Assembly: GCF_041919955.1 (NCBI RefSeq)
Contig: NZ_JAYRSU010000008.1
Location: 2,943-66,942, forward strand
Reading direction: 5' to 3'
DNA from: Phenylobacterium sp.
GTDB lineage: Bacteria > Pseudomonadota > Alphaproteobacteria > Caulobacterales > Caulobacteraceae
DNA: 64,000 bases
How positions within the stretch are numbered: position 1 is the stretch's first letter; each line of letters begins with the position of its first letter. The translations under genes and the position numbers were made by a program. The notes beneath the pieces were generated by a model. It was not told the DNA's origin. It worked only from the letters and a program-made list of their open reading frames with translations, and ran no database searches. Of the stretch, positions 16,824 to 41,275 are shown one piece after another.

Positions 16824-19311
16824 TCAGGGGCGGCCCGAGGCGAGACGGCGCCCCAGCACCATGAACGCGGCGAGGCTGACCGCCGCCGCGCCCGCGAACA
16901 GGGCGTAGAGCGGCATGAAGCCGTGCGCGCCGGTCAGCAGCGAGCCTGCCAGCATCGGCCCGAGCGCGCCGCCGACGGCGAGCGCAGCCGGCATCAGCAC
17001 CGCCACATTGCCGCGGCCGTCCGACGAGGCGATCATCCCCATCTGATAGGCCATGGGGAAGTTCCACAGCCCCCCGGCCAGCACGACGCCGGCCAGATAG
17101 GCGCCGAGGCCCTGGCCCCACTGAAGCGCCGCAACACCGGCGATCGCCAGCAGCATCCCCACCGCCAGAGGCTTCGCACGCCCGAGCTTGTCTCCCAGGA
17201 AGGCGGCCGCGAGGCCCGCCACGCCGCTGACCACCAGGGTGGCGGTCAGGACGCCGTCGGCGGCCTGCGGGCTGACGCCGAACGTCGGGGCGAGTTCGGA
17301 GATGAACGCCCAGAGCGCGGCCAGGCCTGCGAAGGCGACGAACAGCGCCGACAGCCCGAGCCAAGGCGCCCAATCGCGCAGGACCGGCGAGCGGCCGCCG
17401 GCCAGACGCTGCATCGCAAAGCGTCGCTCGGGCGGGGTGAGCGCGCGGCCGGCCGGCATTCCGCGAAGTCCGCAGAGCGTCGCCACGCCAACCATGCCGG
17501 CCAGGGTCAGGACCGCGCCGGAGAACCCCCATCGCGCGGTGACGAACGTCGTCAGGGCCAGCAGGGCGACGATGGCGAGCCCCACCTCGCCTGCGAGCTT
17601 GAAGCCGAACGCCTGGTCAGGCCGATGATGTTCCGAGACCACGGCGATGCAGACGGTGTAGAGCACCCCCAGGCCGGCCCCGGCGATCACCAGGGCCGCC
17701 AGCAGCACCGCGTAGGATCCTACCGCCGCGCAACTCGCCAGGCCCGCCACAGATAGGGCCGAGGCGCCCGCCACCAGGCGGCGCCAGTTGAACCGGTCGA
17801 TCCATAGGTTCGAGGTCGTTGCGACGAGCGCGAAACCCGCCAGGTAGCTGGAGCCGACCAGTCCGATCTGGTTCTCATGAAGACCGAAGCGGGCCGCAGC
17901 GGCGACCAGCAGCGCCGGCATCAGGTTGAAGAGCAGCGCCGCGGCCGCCGATACCGCCGTGGCCGAGGCCAGGACCGTCTTGGACTGCCGATAGAGCGTC
18001 GGCCGCTCGACCGGCGGCGGCGCTTCGGCCGGCGCCGAGCGGGCTGGCAGCGCGCTCGAAGCCGGAATGCGGACCGGGAGGCTGGTGTAGCCTTTGACGA
18101 ATGGCGTGGCCGGGCGAACGGGCTCGCCCATGACCTCGATCACCGGGTAGCGTTTGAGAATCTCTTCCCAGACGATGCGCAACTGCATCTCGGCAAGGCG
18201 GTTGCCCACGCAGCGATGGATGCCGAAGCCGAACGACATGTGCTGGCGCGGTCGCTCGCGGTCGATGATGTAGCGGTCGGGGTTCTCGATCACCGTCTCG
18301 TCACGGTTGCCCGAGACGTACCACATGACCACCTTGTCGCCCTTCTTGATGGTCTTGCCGCCGAGTTCGGTGTCCCGCGTCGCCGTTCGCCGCATGTGCG
18401 CGAGCGGCGTCTGCCAGCGAACCGTCTCGGAGACCATGGACGGGATCAGCTCGGGATGATCGCGCAGCTTCTGGTACTGATCGGGGTTCTGGTTCAGCGC
18501 CAGGACGCTGCCGGTCATGGTGTTCCGGGTCGTGTCGTTGCCGCCGACGATCAGGAGAATGACATTCCCCAGATACTCCATCGGCGACATGTTCCGGGTG
18601 GCCTCGCCGTGCGCCAGCATGGAGATCAGGTTGAAGGCCGGCTCGGCGTTGACCCGTTCGTTCCACAGGCGGACGAAGTAATCGAGGCACTCCATCAGGA
18701 CTGCGGTCTGCTCCTCGACCGTCTCCACCAGCGCCCCGGGCGCCGGCAGGGTCGTGGCGACGTCGGACCAGTAGGTGAGCTTGCGTCGGTCCTCGAACGG
18801 AAAATCGAACAGGGTTCGCCAGCATCTGGGTCGTCAGCTCGATGGAGACCCTGTCGACCCAGTCAAACGTCTCGCCGATGGGCAGCTCGTCCAGGATCTT
18901 CGCTGCGCGTGACCGGATCAGATCTTCCATCCGCGCGAGATTGGCCGGGGCCACGATGGGCGCGACCACCTTGCGCTGGTGATCGTGCTTGGGCGGGTCC
19001 ATGGCGATGAACATCGGCAAGGCGTCCTTCGACAGGTCGTCGAGGATGGCGATGCCGCCGTAGCGGATGTCGGATGAGAACGCCTCGTGGTTGGTGTCGA
19101 CCGCCATGATGTCGTTGAACTTCGTCACCGACCAATAAGGACCGAACTGGCTCTTCGGGCAGAAGTGAACCGGGTCCTCGGCCCGCAGCCGCGCGAAGTA
19201 GGGCCAGTGGCTGTCGGTCCGCCAAAGCTCCGGATTACTGACGTCGATGTCCTCGAGCGCGATTGCAGCCGCATCCAGGCTCTCGCGGGCGACAGCGCCA
19301 TCGTCTGCCAT
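16824..19311 (-). pseudogene. CYP153-family cytochrome P450 fused in frame to a C-terminal MFS transporter; one +1 frameshift at 18815-18816 (real or sequencing error)
   Basis: P450 motifs [48 protein letters not shown]. After LPVRIPA a Pro/Ala linker leads without a stop into about 12 TM segments. Removing one A in GCGAACC restores [16 protein letters not shown] and a single 828-aa ORF. Confidence 0.85.
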
Positions 19312-21121: not shown

Positions 21122-21420
21122 CTGCGATTCCTGGCCGGCTGCCCGATATATCCACGCAGCGCGCAGGCCTTCGCAAGGCTGCGCCGACGACCTCAGATAC
21201 ATGCGGTATTGACCGGATGTAAATTGCCGATCTAGTTTGCGCCCGACTCCGGGGCATCGGGGCGCTTCAGAATTCGAGACAGCCGCCGCGGGCGCGCCGC
21301 TTTGCGCCCGCCCCAGTACCCGTTCCTTTCGGCTCCGCCTCCCATTCCGAAGCGCGTCGGCGCGTCATGATATCGATTACACAACCAGGCGGTGAAAAGG
21401 CCGCCGAAACAGGGGGAAAG

Positions 21421-23760
21421 ATGAGCATTTCCATTCGCGGGCTGTTGCTGGCCACTTCGGGCCTGGCCCTCGCGGCACTGGCCGCGCCGGCCGCCGCGCA
21501 GACCACGCCCGACAATATGTTGGCCGAGCTGGTGGTCACCGCCCAGAAGCGGGCCGAGAACGTCCAGGACATTCCCAAGCCCGTCCAGGTCGTCGGGTCC
21601 AACGAACTGGCCCAGAGCAACGTCACCGAGATCTCGGACCTGAAGAAGCTGGTGCCGGCGATTTCCGGGACCGGGCTCAGCATCCGCGGCGTGGCGACCT
21701 CGGCCTCCAGCATCGGGGCCGAGAACAAGGTCGGCGTCACGCTGGACGATGTGCCCCAGCCCTCGCGCGCCACCCTCGCCAACAACCTGATCGACATCGA
21801 GCGGGTCGAGGTGCTGCCCGGGCCGCAAGGCACCCTGTCGGGTCGCAACGCCACCGGCGGCCTGATCAACCTGGTCACCCGCGCGCCGTCCAAGACCTGG
21901 ACCGGCTTCGCCACCGCCATGGTCACCGACGACCACGAACGCCAGTTCGGCGCCTATGTCTCGGGCCCGGTCACCGACTGGGCCGCCTTCAGCCTGTCGG
22001 CCTATTCGCGCCACACCCGCGGCCTGTTGACCAACCTCACCACCGGCACGGACACCTATTCCGAGGTCAGCGGCCTGCGCGGCAAGCTGGAGCTGACCCC
22101 GACCGACGACCTGACCGTCACCCTCACCGCCTTCCATCAGCAGCGCAACGCGGTGGAACAGGGCCTGGGCGCCTTCATCCTCGCCTATTCGTCGATCCCG
22201 ACCTCGCAGATCTTCACGCCCTACGACTTCAACGGCCCGCGTCGGCCGTTCTCGGAGCTGCGCCCGGCCGCCGTCGGTCCCGGCCAGAACGGCTTCTCCT
22301 CGCCGCGCGACTCCAAGAGCCGCACCATGAACGACGGCGGCGTGATCCGGATCGACTACGACCTGGGTGAAAGCACCCTGACCTCGATCACCTCGTACCT
22401 GCGCGAGACCAATCCCTCGCGCACCGACCTGACCGCCTCGACCCTGGTCAACATGGCCATGCGGCCGGACTTCGACGGCTTCGCCCACATCTTCAACAAG
22501 ACCAACTACATGACCCAGGAGGTGCGGCTGACCTCGCCGACCACTACCGCCTTCCAGTACGTGGTCGGCGCCTTCTATTCGAAGACCGAGAACACCTACG
22601 ACTACACTCGCTTCCTGCTGCCGGTGGACTGGCACCGAGTGTTCGGCCAGGAGGCGGTCGCGATCTTCGCCCACGCCTCCTACGACGTCACCGACAAGCT
22701 GACCCTGGCCGGCGGCCTGCGCTACGAGAAGGACGAGATCGACTACGACTGGACCTTCAAGCCGATCGGCGCAACCAGCCGGCGGCTTGAGAACGGCATC
22801 ACAATCCCCTTCCCGAAGATCAACGACCTGATCGTCAGCCGCGGCTCGGCCTCGGGCGACTATGTCAACTACGACATCTCGGCCCAGTATCACCTTACCG
22901 ACGCGATCATGGCCTATGTCACCTATGGCAAGGCCTCGCAGGGGCCGGTCTACGACGCCGAGGACAACACCGTGGCCATGGTGCGCCCGCTCACGGCGCT
23001 CGAGCCTGAGAAGGTGAAGGCCGTCGAGGCGGGCCTGAAGACCGAATGGTTCGACCGTCGCCTAGTGCTGAACGCCAACTATTTCGACAGCCGCTACGAC
23101 AACTACCAGCTCCAGACGATCCTTTACGACGCCACCATGGCCAACACGATCCCGGTGCTGAAGCTGGCCTCGGTCGGCCAGGTGCGCACTCGCGGCGTGG
23201 AGCTGTCGGCCGCGGCCGTGGTGACCAGCGACTTCCGCCTGAACGCGGCGGTCTCCTACACCGACGCCAAGATCGAATCCTTCCCCTACGCTCCCTGCTA
23301 CACCGGCCAGACCGTGGCGCTGGGCTGCGAGACCATCGTGGTTCCGGGCGAGACGGCCGCGCGGCCGGTGCAGCGCGACCTGGCGGGCCGCTCGCTGGCC
23401 AGCGCGCCCAAGTGGCGGGGCACGTTCAGCGGCGCCTACACCTTCCGCCAGCTCGTCGGCGATTACGACCTGATCCTGAGCGGCACGGTCCGCGCCCAGA
23501 GCAAGTCCAACACCGATCTCCTCGGCGACCCAGCCAAGAACCTTGCGGCCACCACCTTCGTCGACGCCGCCGCCAGCCTCACCAACGGGACCTATCGGTT
23601 CGATCTGCTGGCCAACAACCTCTTCGAGGAGAGCGCCGAGACCTACGGCACGACCATGGGCATCTATCAGCCGCCCGCCGGCACGGTGATCCGCACCCGC
23701 ACCGGGATGAGCCGCGACAACACCCGCTACTTCGGGCTGCGCGTCACCGCGACCTACTGA
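21421..23760 (+). CDS. TonB-dependent receptor
   Basis: Signal peptide, ELVVTAQKRAENVQDIP, DIERVEVLPGPQGTLSGRNATGG, C-terminal RYFGLRVTATY. Confidence 0.95.
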   Translation: MSISIRGLLLATSGLALAALAAPAAAQTTPDNMLAELVVTAQKRAENVQDIPKPVQVVGSNELAQSNVTEISDLKKLVPAISGTGLSIRGVATSASSIGAENKVGVTLDDVPQPSRATLANNLIDIERVEVLPGPQGTLSGRNATGGLINLVTRAPSKTWTGFATAMVTDDHERQFGAYVSGPVTDWAAFSLSAYSRHTRGLLTNLTTGTDTYSEVSGLRGKLELTPTDDLTVTLTAFHQQRNAVEQGLGAFILAYSSIPTSQIFTPYDFNGPRRPFSELRPAAVGPGQNGFSSPRDSKSRTMNDGGVIRIDYDLGESTLTSITSYLRETNPSRTDLTASTLVNMAMRPDFDGFAHIFNKTNYMTQEVRLTSPTTTAFQYVVGAFYSKTENTYDYTRFLLPVDWHRVFGQEAVAIFAHASYDVTDKLTLAGGLRYEKDEIDYDWTFKPIGATSRRLENGITIPFPKINDLIVSRGSASGDYVNYDISAQYHLTDAIMAYVTYGKASQGPVYDAEDNTVAMVRPLTALEPEKVKAVEAGLKTEWFDRRLVLNANYFDSRYDNYQLQTILYDATMANTIPVLKLASVGQVRTRGVELSAAAVVTSDFRLNAAVSYTDAKIESFPYAPCYTGQTVALGCETIVVPGETAARPVQRDLAGRSLASAPKWRGTFSGAYTFRQLVGDYDLILSGTVRAQSKSNTDLLGDPAKNLAATTFVDAAASLTNGTYRFDLLANNLFEESAETYGTTMGIYQPPAGTVIRTRTGMSRDNTRYFGLRVTATY

Positions 23761-23806
23761 TCCCAGATCGGAGCCCCGGCGGACCTTCCTCCGCTGAGGT
23801 TTCACA

Positions 23807-23837
23807 GGGCGGCGAGGTGTTCCCCGCTTCGCCGCCC
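23807..23837 (+). terminator. Intercistronic hairpin between the TBDR and GH20 genes (attenuator or mRNA stabiliser)
   Basis: GGGCGGCGAGG...CTTCGCCGCCC stem with no clear U-tract. Confidence 0.4.
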
Positions 23838-23858
23838 GCACCTTTCCCGGAGGCTTCC

Positions 23859-26051
23859 ATGTCCCCTGCCCGCTTCGCTCTAGCCGCCTCCTGCGCAGCG
23901 GCCGCCCTGGCCCTCGGCCCCCCGGCCTTCGCCACCCCCACGCTCATGCCGCTGCCGCAGACGCTGAATCTCGGGGAGGGCGCGCTGCCGATCGCCGGCG
24001 CCTTCGTGGTCGCGTGGGACAAAGGTTGCCGCGACGCCTTTCTCGACCGTGCGCTGACGAGGTTCCAGGCCGATCTGGAGCGTCTCACCGGCGTCGAGCT
24101 CAAGCCTGGCGCCGGCCCGCGGCTGGAGATCGCGTGCCGCCCCGATCCAGCGCGGGCGGGGCTGGAGGCGCGAGAAGCCTACCGTTTGTCGATCACGCCG
24201 CAGGGCGTGCGCCTGGAGGCCGACGGCCCTCTCGGCGTGCTCCGCGGTCTGGCCACCCTGCGCCAGATCGTCGAGACCTCTCCCGTCGGCGTCAGCGCTC
24301 CAACCATGACCGTCGACGACCGGCCTCGTTTCGTCTGGCGCGGGGTGATGATCGACACCGCCCGCCATTTCATGGCCCTGCCGACCCTCAAGCGGCAGAT
24401 CGACGCCATGGAAGCGGTGAAGCTAAACGTCCTGCATCTGCACCTCAGCGACAACGAGGGCTTCCGCGTCGAGAGCCGCCGATACCCGCGTCTGCACGAG
24501 GTCGCCAGCGGCGGCCGCTACTACACCCAGGATCAGATCCGCGAACTGGTCGCCTACGCAGCCGACCGCGGCGTTCGGATCGTTCCCGAGTTCGACGTGC
24601 CCGGCCACACCAAGGCGCTGATCGAGGCGTATCCCGAACTCGGCGCCCGGCCGGCCAAGGCCGCCGGCCCGATGGCGATCGGCGGGCCAGCCCTGAGCCC
24701 CGCTTGCGAGACGACCTACCGCTTCCTCGACCGGTTGTTCGGCGAGATGGCCGACCTGTTTCCCGACGCCTATTTCCATGCCGGCGGCGACGAGGTGAAC
24801 GCCGCCTCCTGGGCCGGGGATCCGCAGATCGACGCGCTCAAGGCCAAGCACGGCCTAGCCGACAAGGCAGCCGTCGAGGCCTATTTCCACGGTCGCATTC
24901 GCGAAATCCTACGCCGGCACGGCAAGACCATGATCGGCTGGGAAGAGGTCGCCGCCAGCGGCGCCCTGCCCCGCGACGTCGTCGTCCAGGCCTGGCAGAC
25001 CTCCAACGCCACGGCGCATGCGACGGCCAAGGGCCACCGCACCATCGTCTCGGCCGGCTACTATCTCGATCTGCTGGACCCGGCCGCCCACCACTACGCC
25101 ATCGACCCGCTGGACACCTCGGCCGCGGGCCTCACGCCGGCCGAGGCCCAGGCCGGTCGTAAGCTGCACCCGCTGGTCGGCCTCATCCTCACCGACGCCC
25201 TCGTCGCCAATCCGCTGCCGGCGCTGACGCAGGAACAGGAGGCGCTGGTCCTGGGCGGCGAGGCGCCGGTGTGGGCCGAGTTGGTCACCGACGAGATGCT
25301 CGACGCGCGCCTTTGGCCGCGCGCGGCGACCCTGGCCGAGCGCTTCTGGTCGCGCCGCGACGTCCGCGATCCGGCCGACATGTACCGCCGCCTGGCCGTG
25401 CAGCAGGACCGCCTGCGGGCCGCCGGTCTGCAGGACCGTGCCAATCGCGCGCGCATGGCCTCGCGCCTGGCGCCGGGGGCGTCCGAGCCGCTGCTCACCC
25501 TGCTCGACCTGGTCGGCTCGGTCCGTCACATGGCCCACGACAAGCGGGTCGCGGCCATCCTGCGCGGCGAAAAGGTCGTCCAACACCTCAACGCCGCGGC
25601 CGACGCCGCGCCGGTCGACAGCCTGGTCGCCCGCGGCTTCGTCGACCGCGCCCGCCGCTACGCCGGCGGCGAGCGCAGTCTCGCACCCTCCCTGCGCGCC
25701 GACTTCGACCTCTGGGACGTCAACCACCGCCGTATGACGGCCATGTCAGCCCAATATCCGTCGCTCGCCGAGGTCCTGCCCGTCTCGGCCGACATCGCCG
25801 AGCTCGCCGCCATCGGAACGCTGGCGCTGGACGCCATCGAGACCGGTCGCCCGCTGACGCCGGAGGCGGCGGCCCGCGGCCAGGCGATCCTGGCGCGATG
25901 CGAGGCCTTCGAAGAGGCTTCCGCCCGGCCGATCTTTGCTTTCTTCGGCAAGCAGCCGCCCGGCGACCTAATCGTCATGGTCACGCCGGGCGTGCGCGCG
26001 CTCCTTGAGAAGGCGGCCGGCCTCAGCGCTAGCGCGGCGATCCCGGGGTGA
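23859..26051 (+). CDS. Beta-N-acetylhexosaminidase, GH20, exported
   Basis: Signal peptide; PRFVWRGVMIDTARHF; KLNVLHLHLSD; catalytic FHAGGDEV; LWPRAATLAERFWS. ATG 23859 follows a GGAGG RBS. Confidence 0.95.
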   Translation: MSPARFALAASCAAAALALGPPAFATPTLMPLPQTLNLGEGALPIAGAFVVAWDKGCRDAFLDRALTRFQADLERLTGVELKPGAGPRLEIACRPDPARAGLEAREAYRLSITPQGVRLEADGPLGVLRGLATLRQIVETSPVGVSAPTMTVDDRPRFVWRGVMIDTARHFMALPTLKRQIDAMEAVKLNVLHLHLSDNEGFRVESRRYPRLHEVASGGRYYTQDQIRELVAYAADRGVRIVPEFDVPGHTKALIEAYPELGARPAKAAGPMAIGGPALSPACETTYRFLDRLFGEMADLFPDAYFHAGGDEVNAASWAGDPQIDALKAKHGLADKAAVEAYFHGRIREILRRHGKTMIGWEEVAASGALPRDVVVQAWQTSNATAHATAKGHRTIVSAGYYLDLLDPAAHHYAIDPLDTSAAGLTPAEAQAGRKLHPLVGLILTDALVANPLPALTQEQEALVLGGEAPVWAELVTDEMLDARLWPRAATLAERFWSRRDVRDPADMYRRLAVQQDRLRAAGLQDRANRARMASRLAPGASEPLLTLLDLVGSVRHMAHDKRVAAILRGEKVVQHLNAAADAAPVDSLVARGFVDRARRYAGGERSLAPSLRADFDLWDVNHRRMTAMSAQYPSLAEVLPVSADIAELAAIGTLALDAIETGRPLTPEAAARGQAILARCEAFEEASARPIFAFFGKQPPGDLIVMVTPGVRALLEKAAGLSASAAIPG

Positions 26052-26288
26052 GGCCGGCCAGGTAGCGCGGTGGTCTTAATATCCTGATCGGACAGCGAGG
26101 CCGCGGTAGTATTCATCGCCTCGGTCGGATCTGGCCGCTCGCCGCGTTTGAAGGCCACAAGCTGTGCGACCCAGATAGGCCTCACCTTGCCCAGCCAGGC
26201 GCGGGCCGACCGACCGGCCCACGAAGCCCTCGCCATGGCAGCCGGCGCAGGCGTCGGTGGCGACCTGCGCCTTGCCCTCGGGCTTCAG
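26029..26288 (-). pseudogene. Cytochrome c4/c553 domain remnant with two frameshifts
   Basis: Manual translation: ACAGCHGEGFVGRSVGPRLAGQGEAYL / VAQLVAFKRGER...MNTTAASLSDQDIKT / YLAGL. CxxCH motif; no start codon. Confidence 0.8.
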
Positions 26289-26498
26289 CTACGCATCGAC
26301 CGCGACCGTATCGTTCGGATCAGGCGTCTGCCGCTCGAAATAGCCGGCCGGAGACTTGATCTGAGGCTCGCTCCAGGCGGTGAGGACAGCAGCCGACTTC
26401 CGCGGCCCGTAGGCGCTGCAGTTTGACAAGCCCGCCTTGCGCGCCCCGTCTGAGAACCAGTTGCCGAAGCCCTTGGCGGTGAAGCCCCGAGCTTCCAC
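26289..26498 (-). mobile_element. Tyrosine (phage) integrase C-terminal fragment
   Basis: FTAKGFGNWFSDGARKAGLSNCSAYGPRK matches the FGNWF...AGL..CSAHGLRK integrase pattern; HxxR has decayed to YxxR. Confidence 0.75.
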
Positions 26499-26602
26499 AC
26501 GGCTCGGCGGCGCGCCGGGGTAGTGGCGCTTCTGGTCCGCGCCAACAGGAGACGAAGGCTTCTAACCGAAGAGCAGACTCAGTTCGCGGCGAGACCGACC
26601 AG

Positions 26603-26914
26603 CTAAACGCGACGGCGCGCGGCGAAGGCTTCAATGCGAGCGCGGGAGTCTGGACCAACGCCTTCGCAGCGATGAACTTCGTGCGCGAGACCAACGGCGA
26701 GCGGCAAGCCGTCCGTGTCCGCCAGCAGGCGTTTATTGGCGGCGTGGCTGAATGGCGAATTCGCTGCGATCTCGGCGCAAAGCGCCGCGACAGCGTCTTC
26801 GAAACCAGCGTCCGGCGCCCAGGTGTCGGCCAACCCCATCTCGACGGCCTGACGCCCGTCATAGGTACGGCAGGTGAACATCATCTCGCGCGCCTTGGGC
26901 AACCCAGCCTGCAA
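26603..26914 (-). pseudogene. Enoyl-CoA hydratase/isomerase C-terminal fragment
   Basis: GLPKAREMMFTCRTYDGRQAVEMGLAD...IAANSPFSHAANKRLL; the N-terminal half is absent. Confidence 0.8.
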
Positions 26915-27059
26915 CCCTCCCGACTGACGCACGACGGCCTTCTTCGCGTTGGGGATGGTTCGGCCGTTCGATTGAGACGCTAGGGATTCCGATCTTCTTC
27001 GACGGTTCTGGAAACCTCTTGGCCTCGACCTCGTCGCGAAACCTCGTGGCCCTAGATCG

Positions 27060-28772
27060 TCAGTCGACAGCCGCGACCGCAGCATCCGGCCGGCGGCTGT
27101 CGGCGCCGCCTTCGAACACGCCCGCCTCGATGACGATCGACTGGGTCGACCCCATGGTGAGGCTGGATCTGGCCTTGTGGCCCTTGGCCTCCATCAACTT
27201 CAGCATATCGATGGGGAAGCCGGGCTCGAACTCCACGGGCGTGTCGCTGGCGGCCTGGAAGATGCGCGGCCGGCTGGTGGCCTCGGCGATGTTGAGCCTG
27301 TGATCGACCACATTGCTGATCAGCTGAGCCATCGCGCCGATGACGCGCGTCCCGCCGGGGGTGCCCGACGCCAACCAGGGCTTGCCGTCCTTGAAGGCGA
27401 TGATCGGGGTGATGGTCGAGATCACCCGCTTGCCCGGCGCCGGCGCATTGGCCGGTTCTGCACCGCTCCACGCGAAGTTGGCCATGGCGTCATTGAGGAA
27501 GAAGCCGGTGCCGGGCGCCATCACGTGCGCCCCGAACGAGGATCCCAGGGTGAAGGTGTTGCTGACGACGTTCCCTTCGGCGTCGGCGACGGAATAGTGG
27601 GTGGTGTCGCGGCTCTCGAAGGTCAGCGGATCGCCTGGGGCCACGGCCTTGTCCATCGCCTTGTCGAGGTCGATCAGCTTGGCCCGTTCGGCCGCATAGG
27701 CCTTGCTGGACAGCCCCCCCACCGGCGGCGTGTACTGGGGCCAGCCGCCCATGAAGCGCGCGCGGTCGGCGAAGACCAGCTTCATCGCCTCGGCCGTGAC
27801 GTGCAGCGACTGGACGCTGTTCTGGCCGTAGTCCGCCATGGGATAGCGTTCGACGATGTTCATCAGCTCGCAAAGCAGCACGCCGGCGGCCGGCGGCGGC
27901 ATGTATGCGACCGGGACGCCCCGATAGTCGCACCATAGCGGTTGCTCGATGCGGATCTGGTAGTCGGCCAAGTCCTGCTGCGTCAGCACGCCGCCGCCGG
28001 CCTGCACGCCGGCCACGACCCGACGCCCGAGCTCGCCGCGATAGAAGGCGTCGGCGCCGCCATCCCGGATCTGACGCAGCGACCAGGCGAGGTCGGGCTG
28101 CTTCAGCCGGTCGCCGGGCGCGTAGGCGCCGCCGCCTGGCCTGTAGAGCGCCTTGGCCGACGGCGCATCGGCGAGCAGCGCCTCGCTGTACACCTGGGTC
28201 GCATAGACCATGTCGTCGGTCAGAACGACGCCGCCCGCGGCCAGGTCCAGGGCCGGCTGCACAAGGTCGCGCCATGGCAGGCGGCCGTATTGCCGATGCA
28301 CTTCGTAGAAGCCTTTCACCGTCCCAGGAACGGCGACGGCGCGGTGGGAGTAGCGCTTGGCTGGGTCGAGCTTGCCGTTGACGCCGACGAGCAGGTCGCC
28401 GCGAGTCGCGGCTGGAGCCTGGCCATAGTAGTCGACGGCGAGCGTCTTCTGCGCCTTGGCCAGATGGACGAGCATGAAACCGCCGCCGCCCAGATTGCCG
28501 GCCCGCGGCAGGGTGACGGCCAGGGCCAGGCCCGTGGCGACCGCCGCATCCACCGCATTGCCGCCCCTGCGCAGGATGTCCGCGCCGATGCGCGAGGCGA
28601 TCTCGCTCTGGCTGACCACCATGCCCTTCCGCCCCATCACCGGATGATGGATCGCGTCATAGTCGAGGATGTACTCTGCGGCGCCCTTGGCTGGCGCTTG
28701 CGCGAAGGCAAGGTGCGGCGCCGTCAGGCTGGCGGCGGCGAGAAGGGCGGCCAGGGTCGCGGGAAGGCGCAT
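27060..28772 (-). CDS. Gamma-glutamyltransferase-family Ntn hydrolase, exported, with divergent substrate pocket
   Basis: Signal peptide; GGNAVDAAVA; GNLGGGGF; nucleophile motif DTTHYSVADAEGN; TPGG oxyanion loop. Confidence 0.93.
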   Translation of the reverse strand: MRLPATLAALLAAASLTAPHLAFAQAPAKGAAEYILDYDAIHHPVMGRKGMVVSQSEIASRIGADILRRGGNAVDAAVATGLALAVTLPRAGNLGGGGFMLVHLAKAQKTLAVDYYGQAPAATRGDLLVGVNGKLDPAKRYSHRAVAVPGTVKGFYEVHRQYGRLPWRDLVQPALDLAAGGVVLTDDMVYATQVYSEALLADAPSAKALYRPGGGAYAPGDRLKQPDLAWSLRQIRDGGADAFYRGELGRRVVAGVQAGGGVLTQQDLADYQIRIEQPLWCDYRGVPVAYMPPPAAGVLLCELMNIVERYPMADYGQNSVQSLHVTAEAMKLVFADRARFMGGWPQYTPPVGGLSSKAYAAERAKLIDLDKAMDKAVAPGDPLTFESRDTTHYSVADAEGNVVSNTFTLGSSFGAHVMAPGTGFFLNDAMANFAWSGAEPANAPAPGKRVISTITPIIAFKDGKPWLASGTPGGTRVIGAMAQLISNVVDHRLNIAEATSRPRIFQAASDTPVEFEPGFPIDMLKLMEAKGHKARSSLTMGSTQSIVIEAGVFEGGADSRRPDAAVAAVD

Positions 28773-28843: not shown

Positions 28844-31800
28844 TCAGAAGCTCTTGCTGACCTGCGCGAACCAGTAGCGCCCACGATTGCTGTAGAGCTT
28901 GGTGAAATAGCCGAACGTCTCGTCGGCCAGCGGCGGGTCCTTGTCGGCGATATTGTTCACGCCGACCCGGAAGGCGACGCCGGCCAAGGCCCCCTCTTCC
29001 GGCGCATAGCCGACGGCCGCGTTGAAGGTCAGCCAATCGTCGCCTTTGTAGAGCAGGGCCGAGGAGTCCTTCACCGCCCCGACATAGCGGGCGTAGCCGG
29101 ACACTTCCCACGGACCAGACGACCAGGTGACATAGGCTTGGCCGCGGGTGCGGGGATTGTCGTCCTGCTCGATCAGCGAGCCGCCTGCGCTGGCCGGCAG
29201 GCCGGCGGCCAGAAGCGCGGCCGCCTCGGCCGAGGGCGTCTGGTCGAACTTCTGCAGCAGGGCGACATCGAGGCCCAGGCGGAAGTCGCCGAAGTCCGTA
29301 CCGTCGATGCGCCAGGTCGCGCCCAGGTCGATGCCCTCGATGGTGCGGGAGTCGAGATTGAGGAACTGGTTGGCGATGCGGACCGGCTCGCCCAGCGCAT
29401 TGCGGGTGAGAGCCGGGTTCGGCCCCGAACCGCCGAGCCGGCCGATGGCGTCGAGGTTCAGGTGGTCCTGCGACTCGAACACCCCGACCACGCCCTCCTG
29501 CTCGATGCGCCACCAGTCGACGGAGAACAGGAGGTCAGGCGTCGGCGTAAAGACGATGCCGGCGCTGAAGTTTTCGCTGGTCTCGGACTTGAGCGCCCGG
29601 TTGCCGGCCCGCACGTCCTCGACATTGAACCGATAGGTCGAACAGGCGGAGCGGTTGAGGTTGGCGAACTGCGTAACGCCCTGGGCCACCGCGCAGGCGT
29701 AGTAGTCGGTGAGGTTCTCCTGCACGCGACGGATCTCGGACGCGTTCACCGTCTCGAGGTTCGGCGCGCGGAAGCCCTGGGAATAAGCGGCCCGCACCAG
29801 GAGATAGTCGTTCAGCCGCCAACCCAGCGCCGCCTTCGGGCGGACGATCTGCTCGTCGATGTCGGAATAGTCCTCGAAGCGTGCGGCCAGCTGCAGGTCC
29901 AGGCTGCGGACGAACGGGATGTCGGCCTCTTCGGGGATCAGCTTTGTCTGAAGTTCCGCATACGCCGAGAACACCTTGCGCGAGCCGGACGTATCGGGCG
30001 TCGGGCTGGACCCCATCGCGTCGCTCGTCGGCCCGCCGGAGGTCGCGAAAGTGATCGTGCCATCGATCCGCGGGTCGCGGTCGTCCTTGAAGGTCTCGCG
30101 CCGCCATTCAGCGCCGAAGGCCAGACCGACGTCGCGGCCGGCGAGGGTGAAGGCCTGGGGATTGCTGATCTTGGCGTCCCACAGCGCCAGGCTGGTGGTC
30201 CCATCGCGGGTGATGCTGACCCGCAGCGGATCGACCACCGCGGCCGGGTTCAGGGTCGCGTCGAAGCCGCCCGGATTGGCCAGGTTCCCGCCGTTGAAGG
30301 GATTGTAGGCGCGTGCGGGGTCGCTGCTGTTCAACGCCGCCTGGAGGGCGGTGTTGCTGACGCGGTTGCTTTCGACGTCCTTGGTGCGAGCGTGCGAGTA
30401 GAGCAGCGCGCTCTCCCACGCCCAGCCGCCCAGCTTGCCGCGCACGCCGCTCAGCAGGCGGTAGGCGTCGGAGTCCACGTCGATCCGGCGGCGACCGACA
30501 TCGTCGACGCGCAACCCGACCACGGTGATGGCCTGGGCCGGCCCCGTATATCCCGCCAGTCGCCCAGGGCCGGAGCCGAACGGATTGTAGGGGTTGTTCG
30601 CCCCGATGCTCAGCGGCGCGGAGGTCAGATTCGTAGTGCCGCCGCGGACAGAGCTCGACGTCGCGCCATAGTAGAGCGCCTGGCCGAACCACTCGACACC
30701 GCCGAAGTCATGGCTGGCCACCGCCATCAGGCTGTAGCGGTCGGAGCTGGGCGACATGGTGCGCTCAGGCCCCTCGTCGGTGCGCAGGGTTCCGTCCAGG
30801 GTTGTGGAGCCACCGTCGATACAGACGCTCCCGCCAAGCTGAGCGTCGGAACCGGTGTAGGAACAGGGCTGGATATGAAACGCCGTGAACGACGGTCCAA
30901 AGCCGGTCACGGCGGTCCCGACCCGGCCAGTCAGCCAAGGCGTGAGGCTCGATCGGTTGTCGAAGCTGCCGGCGTACTGCGCTGAAACACGGCTGCTGAG
31001 GTTGTCGGTCGCCGCATAGTCGCGATCGCTGGCGGGCATGTCGGTGCGGCTGAAGTACTCCCCGAACAGCGCGACGTGCGTGGCGCCGTCGTTGAAGCGT
31101 GCGCCCCACTTGGCGCCGAGCGAGGCCTCGGTGAGGTTCGTGCCCTCCGATCCGCCATAACGGGCGACGACCTCGGCGCCGACATAGCCGTCGTCCAGAA
31201 CGTTGTTCAGCACGCCGGCGACAGCGTCGGAGCCGTAGAGCGCCGCCCCGCCGTCCCGCAGGACCTCCAGGCGCTTCAGGGCCGTGGCCGGGATGGTGTT
31301 GAGGTTGACCACCTGGACCGGGACCGAGCCTTCCTGCTGGGTGCCGGGGTGAGCGACCATGCGCCGCCCGTCCAACAGCACCAGCGTGTTGCCAGAACCG
31401 AGCCCGCGCAGGTTCGCCGACGCCACGTCGCCGCGAGCCTGATTGGGGCCCTGCTGCTCGTTGTTGAACGCCTGCCCGCCAGACTGCGGCAGAGCGGCGA
31501 TCATTTCACCCGCCGTGACCGCCCCGCTCATCTCGAGTTCGCTACGATCCACCACCGAGACCGGCAACAGGCCCCGCTCGGTGACGCCGGCGATGTTCGA
31601 GCCGACCACCACGATCTCCTCGATCTCGGCGGGCGCGACGTTCTCCACCGTCCCGGAAGGTGCGACCGGCGCAGCCGCTGTCGACACCTTGCTGACCGTA
31701 GCCGGCGCCGGCGCGCGTTCGATGACGATGGTGCGGCCGCTTTCGCGCGAGCGAAGAGGCTGGCCGGCCAGCAGCCGTTGGACCGCCGCGGAAACGGCCA

Positions 31801-32023
31801 GGTCCCCTTGAATCGCCGGCGCACGCCGCCCATCGACCAGGGCAGGATCGAACAGCACCTCGCGTCCGGCCTGTACGCCAAGCGTGCGCAGAGCCGCGCC
31901 GAGGTCCTGGGCGGGAATGTCGAACTGCGCGCGCACGGGCGCTTGGGCCCAAGCCGCCGATCCGACCAGCGCGACAGCCGCCGAGCTGGCCAAGGCCATG
32001 GTCCTGAGATGATGAACTTGCAT
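28844..32023 (-). CDS. TonB-dependent transducer with N-terminal STN signalling domain
   Basis: FDIPAQDLGAALRTLGVQAG (STN), EEIVVVGS, RLEVLRDGGAALYGSDAVAGV, C-terminal RYWFAQVSKSF. ATG 32023; the ORF-track extension upstream is spurious. Confidence 0.95.
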   Translation of the reverse strand: MQVHHLRTMALASSAAVALVGSAAWAQAPVRAQFDIPAQDLGAALRTLGVQAGREVLFDPALVDGRRAPAIQGDLAVSAAVQRLLAGQPLRSRESGRTIVIERAPAPATVSKVSTAAAPVAPSGTVENVAPAEIEEIVVVGSNIAGVTERGLLPVSVVDRSELEMSGAVTAGEMIAALPQSGGQAFNNEQQGPNQARGDVASANLRGLGSGNTLVLLDGRRMVAHPGTQQEGSVPVQVVNLNTIPATALKRLEVLRDGGAALYGSDAVAGVLNNVLDDGYVGAEVVARYGGSEGTNLTEASLGAKWGARFNDGATHVALFGEYFSRTDMPASDRDYAATDNLSSRVSAQYAGSFDNRSSLTPWLTGRVGTAVTGFGPSFTAFHIQPCSYTGSDAQLGGSVCIDGGSTTLDGTLRTDEGPERTMSPSSDRYSLMAVASHDFGGVEWFGQALYYGATSSSVRGGTTNLTSAPLSIGANNPYNPFGSGPGRLAGYTGPAQAITVVGLRVDDVGRRRIDVDSDAYRLLSGVRGKLGGWAWESALLYSHARTKDVESNRVSNTALQAALNSSDPARAYNPFNGGNLANPGGFDATLNPAAVVDPLRVSITRDGTTSLALWDAKISNPQAFTLAGRDVGLAFGAEWRRETFKDDRDPRIDGTITFATSGGPTSDAMGSSPTPDTSGSRKVFSAYAELQTKLIPEEADIPFVRSLDLQLAARFEDYSDIDEQIVRPKAALGWRLNDYLLVRAAYSQGFRAPNLETVNASEIRRVQENLTDYYACAVAQGVTQFANLNRSACSTYRFNVEDVRAGNRALKSETSENFSAGIVFTPTPDLLFSVDWWRIEQEGVVGVFESQDHLNLDAIGRLGGSGPNPALTRNALGEPVRIANQFLNLDSRTIEGIDLGATWRIDGTDFGDFRLGLDVALLQKFDQTPSAEAAALLAAGLPASAGGSLIEQDDNPRTRGQAYVTWSSGPWEVSGYARYVGAVKDSSALLYKGDDWLTFNAAVGYAPEEGALAGVAFRVGVNNIADKDPPLADETFGYFTKLYSNRGRYWFAQVSKSF

Positions 32024-32094
32024 GCCGCGCCCCCTTTGATCCCTTCCCGCGCGATGCGGGTGTCCAGGCGAAGACGCCAAGGGGCCTTGGCCCC

Positions 32095-33093
32095 TCATCG
32101 CGGTGATGAAGTTTTTTTGTCGTGCGCGGCGCCGATCCGGACCGCGTCGGCGCCGGTCTCCACCGACACCGGATGCGTCAGCGGCAAGGCGCTCAGGAAG
32201 CCGCTGGTCTCCCCGGCATAGAAGACGCCGCTGACCTTCATGCGCGCCACCGCCGGGTCGGTGACGACGATCGGGGTCCGCCGATAGCGGTTCATCTCGG
32301 CCACTGCCTCGGCAAGCGTCGCGGAGGCGAATTCGATGCGCCCCTCGCGCCAGTCGCCCGCAACCGGGCCCGCGGGCCGCAGGATGGCGCTGCGACCGGA
32401 GACGTCGATGCGCTCGCCGGCCCGGACCTCCGAGATCCGCCCCTGGCCGGCGGCCTCCACCGCGACGCGGCCTTCGACGACGGCCACGCGCAGTCCCGTC
32501 TTCTCCAACCGCACATCGAAGGAGGTGCCGACCGCCGTCACCGTGTGCCGACCGGCCGCGACCACGAAAGGCCGGGAGGAGTCCTTGGCGACATCGAACC
32601 ACGCCTCGCCGGAGACGAGCTGAAGACCGCGCCGTCGGGCGGAATAGTCGACCTTGACCTCGGTGGCGGTGTTGAGCAGCAGGCGCGAGCCGTCGGCCAG
32701 GCTTACCGTCGCCCGTTCTCCCACGCCGGTCTTGTAGGTCTGAGGCGATCCTTCGCCGAAGCCTCTGTCGCGCAGCGCCATCAGGCCGAGGCCGCCCCCC
32801 GCCACGACCAGCGCCAGGGTCGCGGCGATCGCCGCCCAACGCCGCGTCGCGCCCTGGGGCCGGGCTGCGAGGGCCTCGGCCCGAAGCATCCTGAGAGTCT
32901 CCGAACCCGCCGCCTCGCCTGAAGCGGCCCACATTCGCTCCACGCTCTCGAACGCCTCGCGATGAGCAGGCGAGGCCTCCAGCCACGCTTCCAGGTCGTG
33001 GGCGTCGGCCACGCCCCAGTTGGCCGAGCGCCGCGCGAGGAAGAGCCGCGAGGCGGCTTCATAGGGATCGATCGCGGTCGTGGTGCGGCTCAT
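32095..33093 (-). CDS. FecR-family anti-sigma factor
   Basis: AWLEASPAHREAF; TGVGERATVSLADGSRLLLN; GEAWFDVAKDSSRPFVV; WREGRIEF. ATG 33093 overlaps the sigma stop codon. Confidence 0.93.
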   Translation of the reverse strand: MSRTTTAIDPYEAASRLFLARRSANWGVADAHDLEAWLEASPAHREAFESVERMWAASGEAAGSETLRMLRAEALAARPQGATRRWAAIAATLALVVAGGGLGLMALRDRGFGEGSPQTYKTGVGERATVSLADGSRLLLNTATEVKVDYSARRRGLQLVSGEAWFDVAKDSSRPFVVAAGRHTVTAVGTSFDVRLEKTGLRVAVVEGRVAVEAAGQGRISEVRAGERIDVSGRSAILRPAGPVAGDWREGRIEFASATLAEAVAEMNRYRRTPIVVTDPAVARMKVSGVFYAGETSGFLSALPLTHPVSVETGADAVRIGAAHDKKTSSPR

Positions 33094-33614
33094 CCCTGGC
33101 TCCCGCGCCTGGCCAGATGGGCCAGGGCCTTGATCATGTGCTTCTCGATTGCGCTTACCGAGACTTGCAGCCTGCGCGCGATCTGGGCGTAGCTCATCTC
33201 CTCGAACCTGTGGAGCGTGAAGACCACGCGCGTGCGCTCGGGCAACTCGTGCAAAGCCCGCTCGACCACCCGCAATTGCTCCTGACCGAGGAACATGCGC
33301 TCCGGCGAGAAGTCGGCCTCGGCGTGCAGCCGCTCGTCGAACAGCGCGTGGGTTCCCCCGCGGCGTGCGGCCCGGCGGAAGCTGTCGTTCAGCACGCTGG
33401 CCGCAACCGTGAAGAGATAGTTCTCCGGCGCCTCCAGCGTCGCGCCCTTGCGGGCGGCGAGCCGCAGGAACACTTCCTGCACCATGTCGTCGATGTCGGC
33501 GGCCGAGCGGACACGCGCACGAAAATAGCGCGCGAGCGGCGCGGCGTACCGGCGCGCCATCTCGTCCACGTTCGCATCGCCCTTCGGCGCCATGTCCTCG
33601 GCTCCAACCGCCAT
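33090..33614 (-). CDS. ECF sigma-70 factor (FecI-like)
   Basis: DIDDMVQEVFLR; LHELPERTRVVFTLHRFEEMSYAQIARRLQVSVSAIEKHM. Confidence 0.93.
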   Translation of the reverse strand: MAVGAEDMAPKGDANVDEMARRYAAPLARYFRARVRSAADIDDMVQEVFLRLAARKGATLEAPENYLFTVAASVLNDSFRRAARRGGTHALFDERLHAEADFSPERMFLGQEQLRVVERALHELPERTRVVFTLHRFEEMSYAQIARRLQVSVSAIEKHMIKALAHLARRGSQG

Positions 33615-35692: not shown

Positions 35693-37054
35693 TCAGGCGC
35701 CGAGCGCCTTGAAGACGTCGATCCGCACCGAGCCGAGACGCTGCGCCGACAGGGCCAGATCCGTGCGCGCCGCGACCAGGTCCCGCTGGGCCGTGAGCAG
35801 TTGCAGGAACGAAATCTCGCCCACCCGGTAGCGATGGTCCGCCAGCTGATAGGCGGCTTCGGCCCGCCTCGACGCCTCGGCGAGCGCCAGATTGCGGTCG
35901 GACTCAGCGCCATAAAGGGCGAGCGACCGCTCTACGTCCTTCAGCGCGCCCAGCACCGCACCGTCGAACAGGGCCAGCGAGACCTGGTTCTGCGCGCGGG
36001 CCTGGGCCAGCCGCGCTCGGGCCGCGACGATGTTGGGGAAGTTCCAGGACACCACCGGCCCAACCGAGAACGTCGTCCCCCTTGCACTGGCCAGCTCGCC
36101 TCCAGCGTCCTCAAGCCCCGCCCCCAGCGAGATGCGCGGATAGAGGTCGGCGGTCGCCACGCCGATGCGGGCGGCGTCGGCGGCCAGCCGCCGCTCGGCT
36201 TCGCGCACGTCCGGACGACGGCGCAGCAGGCCGGCGCCGTCACCGACCGGCAAGACCGCCTGCGTCCGGGGCGGACGGACGCAGGCGGTCGCCTCGGCCG
36301 GCGCCTCGGCAGGGGGAACGCCGATCAGGGCGGCCAGGCCGAAGAGGGAGGCCTTGCGCTGGGCCTCGATGGGAGCGACGAGCGCCCGGGCGTTGGCGAC
36401 GTCGGTGGCGGCCTGCTCGACCTCCAGCCGCGACGCCGCGCCGGCGCTTTCCTGGGCGGTGACGAGCTTCAGGCTGTCTTGCGCGACCGCCAGGGCCGAA
36501 CGCGACGCCGCGGCGGCGTCCGCAAAGGCGCAGGCGTCGGCATAGGCGCGCGCGGTCTCCGCCGCGACGGTGACGCGAACCTGATCACGAACCGCCGCCA
36601 CTGCGTCCGCATCGGCCTTGGCCGCGGCGATGGTCGACGAGAGGCGACCGAAGAGATCGACCTCCCAGTTCATCGAGAACCCGGCGCTCCGGACCCAGTC
36701 CTCGCGGCCCTGGCCTTGTGGATCGCCATTGCCATAGCGCGCCTGGGCCGACACCGTGGTCAGCGGCGGCCGCTCGCCCCGCGCTCCGCGCAGAACGGCC
36801 TGCGCACGCAGGAGGTTGGCGTTGGCTGCGCGCAAATCCGTGTTGGCCGCCAACGCCCGCTCGATCAGGGCCTCCAGCACCGGGTCGTGGTAGAGCCGCC
36901 ACCAGTCGGCGACGGGCTCGGCCCCGGTGGTGTCGGCCGGCATGGTCTGGAAGGGACCGGTCGCCGCGGCGACCGGCGCCTGGACGCTCCGCCCGCCTGC
37001 CGAGGCGCAGGCGCTGGTCAGCAGGGCCAACGTCAGGACGATCAGCTTACGCAT
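35693..37054 (-). CDS. RND efflux outer-membrane lipoprotein (NodT/OprM family)
   Basis: Lipobox LTSAC; WEVDLFGRL; LLRRRPDVREAERRL; FKALG. Confidence 0.93.
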   Translation of the reverse strand: MRKLIVLTLALLTSACASAGGRSVQAPVAAATGPFQTMPADTTGAEPVADWWRLYHDPVLEALIERALAANTDLRAANANLLRAQAVLRGARGERPPLTTVSAQARYGNGDPQGQGREDWVRSAGFSMNWEVDLFGRLSSTIAAAKADADAVAAVRDQVRVTVAAETARAYADACAFADAAAASRSALAVAQDSLKLVTAQESAGAASRLEVEQAATDVANARALVAPIEAQRKASLFGLAALIGVPPAEAPAEATACVRPPRTQAVLPVGDGAGLLRRRPDVREAERRLAADAARIGVATADLYPRISLGAGLEDAGGELASARGTTFSVGPVVSWNFPNIVAARARLAQARAQNQVSLALFDGAVLGALKDVERSLALYGAESDRNLALAEASRRAEAAYQLADHRYRVGEISFLQLLTAQRDLVAARTDLALSAQRLGSVRIDVFKALGA

Positions 37055-40000: not shown

Positions 40001-40118
40001 TGCGCGGATATTCGCGCACCGGCAGCGAGAACAGCGCCGCCCCGCCGCTGAGCAGGATCAGCAGGCTGACCACCACGGCCAGGATCGGCCGGCGGATGAA
40101 GAGGTCGGTGAACTTCAT
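37047..40118 (-). CDS. RND efflux permease (AcrB family, MexI/MexW-like)
   Basis: FIRRPILA; AIGLVVDDAIVVVENI; AVRMRPVLMT. 1023 aa. Confidence 0.96.
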   Translation of the reverse strand: MKFTDLFIRRPILAVVVSLLILLSGGAALFSLPVREYPRMESATIVVDTSFPGATQTVMQGFVTTPIAQAIATANGIEYLTSTSSQGRSQIKAKLVLNADADRSMTEILAKIQQVKYRLPPGATDPVITKITDGAAAVQYVAFVSDSLTVPQITDFVTRVAQPLVTAVPGVASVEIGGAQSLAMRVWLDPTRLAARGLTAGEVAAALRANNVQAAPGRLKGADTLINITAATDLTGIDEFRNMVIRSGPGGMIRLSDVATVELGGQNYDTQAMTDGRRSVWIGISPTPDGNPLEIVKAVKDLLPDIQRVAPPGMKIFNQFDVAHFVNASIAEVVHTLVEAVVIVVVVIFLFLGSFRAVAIPVITIPLSLVGTAALMLAFGFSLNLLTLLAMVLAIGLVVDDAIVVVENIHRHIEEGLSPVHAALVGAREIVGPVIAMTITLAAVYAPIGLMGGLTGALFREFAFTLAGSVVVSGVVALTLSPMMSSWLLNDRVSEGRFAKIIEHRMGALTAGYERLLGRTLQARGAVLLVGGMVLVAIVVLFAGARRELAPQEDQGFVFVQTKAPQYANVDYTARYADQVEHMFRDLPEYVSSWFESGTGGANNGFGGVILKEWGERERSADDVQAQLNARGAGVTGVYVAAFQPAPLPAGSGGLPVQMVIRSPEDFAAIYAAMEKVKGAAWGSGLFAFVDSDLAFDSPEARITIDRAKAGEMGVSMEAIADTLALLVGENYVNRFNWRDRSYDVITQVPRERRVSPEDLAQYYVKTASGDLVPLATVARIEVHPQANSLPQFNQMNSATLSAVLAPNVTMGQAVEFLKAQPLPPGASIDWLSDSRQYVTEGDRLTVSFAFALVVIFLVLAAQFESVRDPLVILVTVPLAICGALVPLYLGFATLNIYTQIGLVTLIGLISKHGILMVSFANEMQRHEGVGRAEAIRKAAAVRMRPVLMTTAAMVAGLVPLLFAAGAGAASRFAIGIVVVMGMLVGTLFTLFVLPTVYSLIAKDHGHEAQSERAKALSEAAHA

Positions 40119-40120
40119 GA

Positions 40121-41251: not shown

Positions 41252-41275
41252 GGGAGCCCCCTTGTCGGAGAGAAA

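Follow-up and report, generated by a model that had tools for sequence, protein, structure and literature searches.

A 64,000-nucleotide stretch of Phenylobacterium sp. DNA (contig NZ_JAYRSU010000008.1, positions 2,943 to 66,942; referred to below as the window) carries on its minus strand a gene for a protein of the gamma-glutamyltransferase (GGT) fold. The gene is the last of four, preceded by those for an extracytoplasmic-function (ECF) sigma factor, a FecR-type anti-sigma factor and a TonB-dependent transducer with an STN domain. Alignment with E. coli GGT indicates that this protein has an intact catalytic apparatus but different side chains at the positions that would hold a gamma-glutamyl donor by its alpha-amino and alpha-carboxyl groups. 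We favour, with a probability of about 60%, the view that it is a ligand-induced periplasmic amidase that cleaves an amide bond of a compound imported by the partner transducer, the acyl group being something other than a free gamma-glutamyl group. What is new is the gene context, in which a conserved GGT-fold enzyme with an altered donor pocket, probably an amidase and annotated as a gamma-glutamyltransferase, is coupled to a transporter. In the literature we found neither this clade nor its transporter coupling described.

Structure and export of the GGT-like protein

27060..28772, minus strand: gene for a GGT-fold N-terminal nucleophile (Ntn) hydrolase of the Tyr114/Asn433 type, 570-residue precursor (open reading frame, PF01019, TIGR00066, 2e0w alignment, AlphaFold, Foldseek)
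28701..28772, minus strand: Sec-type signal peptide, residues 1-24, predicted cleavage between AFA and Q (read by eye)

The 570-residue protein matches the Pfam family PF01019 over the full length (E = 2e-148; positions 2-511 of the 512-position profile), and residues 31-565 align with the E. coli GGT precursor 2e0w (E = 4e-119), to which the protein is equal in length and about 38-40% identical. An AlphaFold model (AF2), built from an alignment of 35 members of the clade described below, has a mean predicted local distance difference test (pLDDT) score of 88.7. Foldseek superimposes it on the Bacillus licheniformis GGT precursor 4y23 with template-modelling (TM) scores of 0.86/0.89 and on 2e0w with 0.80/0.92. 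The scores of 0.80-0.92 to solved GGT precursors bear out the fold that an earlier reading of this DNA from its letters alone (the sequence-only reading) had assigned. Every structural test places the protein in the GGT superfamily (Pfam PF01019, MEROPS T03 Ntn-hydrolase fold).

The precursor begins with MRLPATLAALLAAASLTAPHLAFA followed by QAP, a segment that resembles a Sec signal peptide when judged by eye, and a GGAG Shine-Dalgarno sequence lies 8 nt 5' of the ATG. The protein is probably exported to the periplasm. Autocatalytic cleavage into a large and a small subunit is predicted from the residues at the cleavage site; in the model, the P-segment linker preceding it (residues 378-388) has pLDDT values below 50, as expected of a precursor.

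Active site and donor pocket

E. coli numbering was rebuilt from the 2e0w alignment, checked against positions given in the literature and mapped onto the protein and the window coordinates. The following features, all assigned by alignment, result.

28425..28427, minus strand: Tyr116, replacing the alpha-carboxylate-binding Arg114 (VDYYG; also from residue counts)
27603..27605, minus strand: Thr390, equivalent to E. coli Thr391, predicted nucleophile and autoprocessing site between Asp389 and Thr390 (invariant in the clade)
27474..27557, minus strand: remodelled alpha-amino site with Gly410 (for Asn411), Ala429 (for Gln430) and Asn432 (for Asp433); catalytic Thr408 kept
27423..27476, minus strand: shortened lid region, 18 residues against 27, without an equivalent of Tyr444
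27405..27422, minus strand: ISTITP motif, Ser452-Thr453-Ile454 for Ser462-Ser463-Met464
27351..27356, minus strand: Gly473-Gly474 oxyanion loop, equivalent to E. coli Gly483-Gly484, kept

E. coli Ggt (2dbu, 2dbx and 2e0w; MEROPS T03) and the window protein have the periplasmic location (predicted for the latter), the fold, the catalytic Thr pair, the Gly-Gly loop and the precursor architecture in common. They differ at Arg114, Asn411, Gln430, Asp433, Ser463 and Met464, all of which are replaced in the window protein, and in the lid, which is nine residues shorter: E. coli residues 434-460 (27) match only 18, with Tyr444 inside the gap. Thr409 and Ser462 are retained as Thr408 and Ser452. The sequence-only reading had listed a kept nucleophile Thr and Gly-Gly oxyanion loop, the change of DFRE to DYYG, Gly for Asn411 in TFTLG (Gly410), Ala and Asn for Gln430 and Asp433 in NDAMANF (Ala429 and Asn432), ST for SS, and a short lid loop, and the alignment recovers every one of these motifs.

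In GGTs, Arg114, Ser462 and Ser463 bind the alpha-carboxylate of the donor, and Asn411, Gln430 and Asp433 bind its alpha-amine (PMC8062742). At the residue level the window protein does not qualify as a glutathione-type gamma-glutamyltransferase: Tyr116 takes the place of Arg114, none of Asn or Glu at 411, Gln or Glu at 430 and Asp at 433 is present, and Ser-Thr-Ile replaces Ser-Ser(-Met) at 462-464. The last of these is a weak feature alone, given that the E. coli S463T mutant retains 60% activity. The acyl-binding pocket would be wider and uncharged, and since it combines R114Y, D433N, N411G, Q430A and a short lid, a free alpha-amino-acid end should not be held. The polar groups that remain are the hydroxyls of Tyr116, Ser452 and Thr453 and the amide of Asn432.

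Studies of other GGTs point the same way. In E. coli GGT, R114L and R114D render the enzyme inactive, D433N removes transpeptidation and confers hydrolysis of glutaryl-7-aminocephalosporanic acid (GL-7-ACA), and lid-less GGTs accept bulky substrates such as poly-gamma-glutamate (PMC8062742). Helicobacter bilis Bgh1, a natural variant with the same D-to-N and S-to-T changes at the equivalents of E. coli 433 and 463, shows no GGT activity, is not autoprocessed and has no GL-7-ACA acylase activity (PMC3279353); unlike the window protein, it keeps the lid and the other residues and belongs to the epsilonproteobacterial GGT branch. These mutants and Bgh1 agree with the earlier claim that gamma-glutamyl recognition has been lost. 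We take that loss as a prediction from sequence, and it is tempered by the extremophile GGTs considered below. A change of specificity would be a known kind of event, since other GGT-fold proteins (CapD, LmbA and a T. acidophilum protein) are neofunctionalised.

Conservation and phylogeny

The substitutions are fixed among relatives. Tyr114 and Asn433 are present in every one of the 120 nearest homologue clusters (53-90% identity), position 411 is Gly, Ser or Thr, position 430 is Ala, Ser, Thr or His, and the catalytic positions are constant; the named sources of the closest ones are Phenylobacterium, Caulobacter, Sphingomonas, Alkalicaulis, Steroidobacter and Peristeroidobacter. An alignment of 35 diverse clade members shows Thr390, Thr391, His392, Thr408, Gly474 and the PR motif to be invariant. 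Relative to canonical GGTs, the clade has fixed R114Y, D343G, D345P, D433N, M464I, V491M, L492A, A511R and H516Q. This pattern is neither chance nor a sequencing artefact, and by its conservation the protein belongs to a maintained clade and is not a broken copy.

A wider search over 1.84 billion cluster representatives separates three tiers: the Tyr type; an Arg/Asn grade, 43-49% identical to the window protein, which keeps Arg114 and Gln430 and already has Gly411, Asn433 and Thr463; and canonical GGTs with Arg, Asn or Glu, Glu or Gln, Asp and Ser-Ser. All 135 clade members have Tyr at position 114, where the sister grade and 173 canonical GGTs have Arg without exception. In a neighbour-joining tree the Tyr type, which spans Caulobacterales, Sphingomonas and Steroidobacteraceae, forms a single clade (77 of 100 bootstraps) inside the Arg114/Asn433 grade, which is paraphyletic. 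The likely order of events is therefore a canonical GGT that lost first the amine site and then the carboxylate-binding Arg.

The sequence-only reading had suggested a possibly new GGT subfamily. The conserved clade, described nowhere that we found, makes this suggestion reasonable, although its single features are known from elsewhere, Asn433 from class IV acylases and 2nlz and the loss of Arg114 from the YwrD/extremophile branch.

Within the Tyr type, a subgroup from Steroidobacteraceae carries Asp in place of the first oxyanion Gly (E. coli 483), along with His430, Ala463 and a full-length lid that lacks the Tyr; its function may have shifted further. It is represented in our loci L004 (10001-11779) and L014 (8001-9788) and in 28 database clusters (P0080, P0090, P0100 type). 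In several longer representatives, P0122 (1129 residues), P0128 (960 residues), P0154, P0206 and P0252, the GGT domain forms the C-terminal half; one of them holds two GGT stretches, and we read them as domain fusions.

Gene module and transporter linkage

33090..33593, minus strand: FecI-like ECF sigma factor (Pfam and profile matches)
32095..33093, minus strand: FecR-type anti-sigma factor, DUF4880 and FecR (profile matches)
32063..32095, minus strand: block TGAGG-N16-CGTCTT between the genes for FecR and the transducer, a candidate ECF-dependent promoter (shared by seven loci of the Phenylobacterium group)
28844..32023, minus strand: TonB-dependent transducer of about 1051-1059 residues (Pfam STN, Plug and TonB_dep_Rec_b-barrel)

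The transducer gene begins at 31999 or, more likely from comparison with a related locus (L002), at the ATG at 32023 (MQVHHLRTMALASS...), and it ends 71 nt 5' of the GGT-like start. A terminator scan predicted no terminator between these two genes. A promoter scan found no sigma-70-like promoter, and the window contains no Rfam family; the TGAGG-N16-CGTCTT block, a promoter by inferred function, is the candidate for expression of the transducer and the enzyme. The Phenylobacterium-like source bacterium is seen mostly in activated-sludge and wastewater metagenomes. RNA-type runs from wastewater gave a few contigs of 150-240 nt on the GGT-like gene, which are too thin to speak for expression or co-transcription and may stem from DNA carry-over.

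We built hidden Markov models (HMMs) from the transducers, anti-sigma factors and sigma factors of the module, scanned 98 loci with them and classed each GGT by its residue signature. A gene of the transducer family is found no farther than 2.5 kb away in 18 of 19 Tyr-type and 8 of 9 Arg/Asn-type loci. Of the 70 canonical loci, none has one at that distance, and for 41 of them the flank on one side reaches 3 kb or more. Another three Arg/Asn-type loci, from Sphingomonadales, Pseudoteredinibacter and SAR86, all carry the transducer at 668-1041 bits, which brings that group to 11 of 12. Scores were 1547-1867 bits at Tyr-type and 119-1041 bits at sister-grade loci; eight unrelated proteins of the size of TonB-dependent receptors gave no score, and neither did other TonB receptors of the window and of the same loci. 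The transducers of both groups are one family by these profiles. Because the linkage is absent from canonical GGTs, it argues for a different physiological substrate.

The module recurs in Phenylobacterium sp. LjRoot164, Peristeroidobacter soli, Steroidobacter agaridevorans, Sphingomonas pituitosa, Alkalicaulis satelles and a JGI metagenome contig, in the last with a rearranged gene order. A genome-contig search with the single protein found eight close loci of the Phenylobacterium group, and the wider context comes from contig look-ups and a metagenome scan. Between transducer and GGT-like genes the spacing ranges from overlap to 71 nt, and the enzyme often starts 0-12 nt from the transducer stop.

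Neighbouring genes of the relatives

Beyond the module, Tyr-type genes are accompanied by two S9 peptidases in Steroidobacteraceae, by a directly downstream M20 peptidase and a C26 gene in Sphingomonas, by a sulfatase in Phenylobacterium LjRoot164, by a MacB-type ATP-binding cassette (ABC) system in Alkalicaulis, and on the JGI contig by a CitMHS transporter and a D-serine-dehydratase-like gene. Arg/Asn-type loci lack the sigma/anti-sigma pair, their transducer is without the STN domain, and a dicarboxylate symporter of the DASS or SDF family is a recurrent companion. An Amidohydro_3 gene, a gene for a DAO-family oxidase and one for a PF00144 serine hydrolase occur in single loci of this type, and one locus has a MacB-type ABC exporter beside the pair. 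The sister grade (SAR86, Sphingomonadales, Pseudoteredinibacter) thus shares with the window protein N411G/S, D433N, S463T and the transducer family, and differs from it in keeping Arg114 and Gln430, in its STN-less transducer, in the absence of ECF and FecR genes, and in a canonical GGT and a DASS symporter that often lie alongside. In three Arg/Asn-type loci a canonical GGT with a lid and the full Arg/Asn/Glu/Asp/Ser-Ser set directly adjoins the variant, and this placement suggests that the two are non-redundant.

The Arg114/Asn433 grade is very abundant in marine SAR86, where variant and canonical GGT genes form a tandem and genes for the transducer family and a DASS symporter lie next to them (for example on contig L100, 6273-14188; also L099, L019, L064, L072 and L058). 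A sediment metagenome locus (L019, 5293-17740) has three GGT paralogues of differing signatures; grouped with them are genes for the transducer, for an ABC system of the MacB type, and for a response regulator and its hybrid histidine kinase.

Proposed mechanism

For export, processing, induction and chemistry we draw on established GGT and FecIRA-type systems. The E. coli Fec and Pseudomonas Fpv, Fox and Has systems likewise encode an ECF sigma factor, FecR and an STN transducer together; they handle iron carriers under Fur control, whereas the cargo gene of the window module is a putative GGT-fold amidase. We propose that the outer-membrane transducer would bind and import a specific compound and signal through the FecR-type anti-sigma factor, so that the ECF sigma factor is released and activates the promoter between the anti-sigma and transducer genes, leading to expression of transducer and enzyme. 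Because ligand binding would trigger sigma release, the enzyme would be made only when its substrate is present outside the cell. The co-transcribed enzyme would be exported by Sec and would cleave itself between Asp389 and Thr390. Thr390 would then attack the amide carbonyl, with the backbone of Gly473-Gly474 stabilising the oxyanion, and the acyl-enzyme would be hydrolysed, the outcome being periplasmic hydrolysis of an amide bond in the imported compound.

The acyl group is more likely gamma-glutamyl- or glutaryl-like, with the amine substituted or absent and the distal carboxyl neutralised or only hydrogen-bonded. The sequence-only reading had proposed a periplasmic amidase or acylase for a non-glutamyl amide. 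Its first half agrees with the replaced binding residues, the predicted secretion and the transducer linkage. The words "non-glutamyl" go too far: since Ser452, Thr453 and the Tyr hydroxyl could still hold a carboxyl or carboxamide group, an acyl group that resembles gamma-glutamyl but has its amine blocked would be just as likely. The likeliest role is scavenging of a peptide-like nutrient and not glutathione turnover, because the neighbours of the relatives are peptidases, D-amino-acid enzymes and dicarboxylate symporters.

Several observations weigh against this reading of an induced, transporter-coupled amidase. With 467.6 bits, the protein exceeds the cutoff of the equivalog model TIGR00066 (357.85). 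Extremophile GGTs that lack Arg114 and Ser-Ser, having Ser and His-Thr (462/463) in their place, retain hydrolysis of gamma-glutamyl substrates (PMC8062742), so that residual or even good activity of this kind is conceivable for the window protein. The clade-specific Arg501 (E. coli position 511) may be a compensating basic residue. A Tyr-type gene of Caulobacter sp. X has no transducer and is preceded by S46 and M1 peptidase genes, and a deep-branching Tyr-type member on a Legionellales-like contig has no transducer either. The genes around the four-gene core differ between genomes, which makes them weak hints. Lastly, the FecIRA-type architecture is classically linked to iron carriers, and the substrate could thus be a metallophore.

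Alternative explanations

This last point leads to an alternative that we consider unlikely: metal acquisition, in which the transducer would import a ferric siderophore or other metallophore and the enzyme would cut an amide in it, which would free the metal or allow the carrier to be used again. An ECF sigma factor together with FecR and an STN transducer is the classic arrangement of iron-carrier signalling (compare PMC9249621), and MacB-type ABC exporters stand beside the pair in Alkalicaulis and one sister-grade locus. A GGT of Caulobacter (CC_0984), which may or may not belong to the clade, was down-regulated under low iron in an iron-response study. Upstream of the sigma and transducer genes in seven loci, the best match to a Fur box is 8-12 of 19 positions, within background, although Alphaproteobacterial iron regulators may use other sites. 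The transducer is unusually long (about 1050-1140 residues in this family, some 250-350 more than the solved siderophore transducers FecA, FpvA and FoxA), and no NCBIfam siderophore-receptor model comes near its cutoff. Nor did we see siderophore biosynthesis or reductase genes near the examined loci, and the sister grade has the transducer family without the sigma/anti-sigma pair and with dicarboxylate symporters and canonical GGTs. In view of the peptidase, D-amino-acid and dicarboxylate-transport genes among the neighbours, the lack of a Fur box above background, the size of the transducer and its low scores with siderophore-receptor models, we prefer a peptide-like nutrient to a metallophore, although the signalling architecture leaves some room for the latter.

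Slightly less probable in our estimate is a dicarboxylyl acylase of the glutaryl or succinyl type, akin to class IV cephalosporin (GL-7-ACA) acylases, that would release a dicarboxylate in the periplasm. Asn433, present here as Asn432, marks class IV, and the single change D433N suffices to confer this acylase activity on E. coli GGT. The Bacillus halodurans "cephalosporin acylase" 2nlz shares with the window protein the GGT fold, Asn433, Thr463 and the loss of Arg114 (Ser in 2nlz), and dicarboxylate transport genes are at hand, DASS or SDF symporters beside the sister-grade pair and CitMHS in one Tyr-type locus. A basic residue for the glutaryl carboxylate, be it Arg114 or the Arg430 found in 2nlz, is replaced in the window protein by Tyr116 and Ala429, and for this reason the idea suits the Arg114/Asn433 sister grade better. 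2nlz moreover is only 31% identical, lies on a distant branch, has Arg430 and His462 against Ala and Ser, and has no known transporter linkage; Asn433 therefore arose more than once. Class IV acylases are reported to be only about 30% identical to GGTs, and the D-to-N paralogue of H. bilis lacks GL-7-ACA acylase activity. We had also considered that the sister grade might be the class IV acylases and dropped this in view of the roughly 30% identity given in reviews and the distant position of 2nlz; among the results of two large protein searches, no match was named Pseudomonas sp. SE83 AcyI.

A bolder proposal, which we rate as similarly doubtful, would join the Tyr clade and the Arg114/Asn433 grade as a hitherto unnoticed class of transporter-coupled periplasmic GGT-fold amidases that cut gamma-glutamyl bonds whose glutamate amine is acylated. 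D433N with N411G would make space for the N-acyl group, and R114Y would suit the amidated D-isoglutamine of Gram-positive walls. The most attractive candidates would then be peptidoglycan stem peptides taken up by the partner transporter (L-Ala-gamma-D-Glu linked to meso-diaminopimelate or Lys, with cleavage after Glu); further N-blocked gamma-glutamyl compounds, for instance fragments of poly-gamma-glutamate or folyl-polyglutamate, are possible too.

We find it rather improbable that the protein is an ordinary gamma-glutamyltransferase or glutathione hydrolase in which the changed residues merely tune affinity. This would accord with the TIGR00066 score, the E. coli identity, the kept catalytic residues, the extremophile enzymes and the name gamma-glutamyltransferase carried by homologues in the source databases. 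The E. coli-type model NF007187 is missed (437.7 against 990 required). Against this alternative, each of the five side chains in contact with the alpha-amino or alpha-carboxyl group differs, and the difference is fixed across the clade; R114L/D inactivates E. coli GGT, D433N deprives it of transpeptidation, and the H. bilis paralogue is without GGT activity. The absence of the transducer from canonical loci and the canonical GGT beside the variant in sister-grade loci speak against it as well.

A catalytically dead binding protein retaining only the fold is very improbable: Bgh1, with similar substitutions, is not autoprocessed, and in the Steroidobacteraceae subgroup Asp replaces the first oxyanion Gly, but the catalytic set of the window protein is complete, and Thr390, Thr391, His392, Thr408, Gly474 and the PR motif are invariant in the 35 aligned members.

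Significance

The window protein and all its relatives carry the label gamma-glutamyltransferase or glutathione hydrolase and exceed the NCBI equivalog cutoff, despite the loss of the residues that define this specificity. Genome papers on SAR86 read its ggt genes as evidence of glutathione utilisation (PMC3358033, PMC11582366), and since these genes include the Arg114/Asn433 grade, the argument for oceanic glutathione use may be partly wrong. Were the acylated-amine proposal true, many ggt genes of ocean and soil would serve cell-wall and peptide scavenging instead. The recurrence of the enzyme-transporter pair across alpha- and gammaproteobacteria points to a specific environmental compound that is actively imported and cut in the periplasm, and in the clade of the window protein the sigma/anti-sigma ligand switch could act as a reporter for finding it. 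The clade also represents a natural re-specification of the GGT donor pocket that goes beyond the D433N and triple mutants engineered for cephalosporin acylase activity, and it may offer a scaffold for amide biocatalysis. Its significance would grow if the substrate were a major environmental compound or if the SAR86 genes had another role.

Other features of the window

A TonB-dependent receptor gene (21223-23760, plus strand) and a following gene for a glycoside hydrolase family 20 (GH20) beta-N-acetylhexosaminidase (about 23850-26051) converge on the GGT-like gene. We considered this stretch (21223-26051) as part of the module and rejected it, as the adjacency is absent in all relatives; it looks like a separate amino-sugar uptake pair. 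Between it and the GGT-like gene, downstream of the latter, lies about 1 kb without a convincing gene (26051-27060), which is unique to this genome among the relatives. An open reading frame at 26603-27085 on the minus strand holds the 3' portion only of a gene for an enoyl-CoA hydratase (positions 143-215 of the 251 in the ECH_1 profile) and is probably a gene remnant from a rearrangement beside the module.

Farther away, a single stop-to-stop frame at 16824-18833 on the minus strand contains a match to the C-terminal part of the cytochrome P450 profile followed by a match to a major facilitator superfamily transporter; it represents either two in-frame genes or a truncated P450 fused to the transporter. 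On the other side of the module, 35693-42029 holds an efflux operon of the resistance-nodulation-division type (outer-membrane factor, AcrB-type pump and membrane-fusion protein) with a divergent TetR gene, unrelated to the module.

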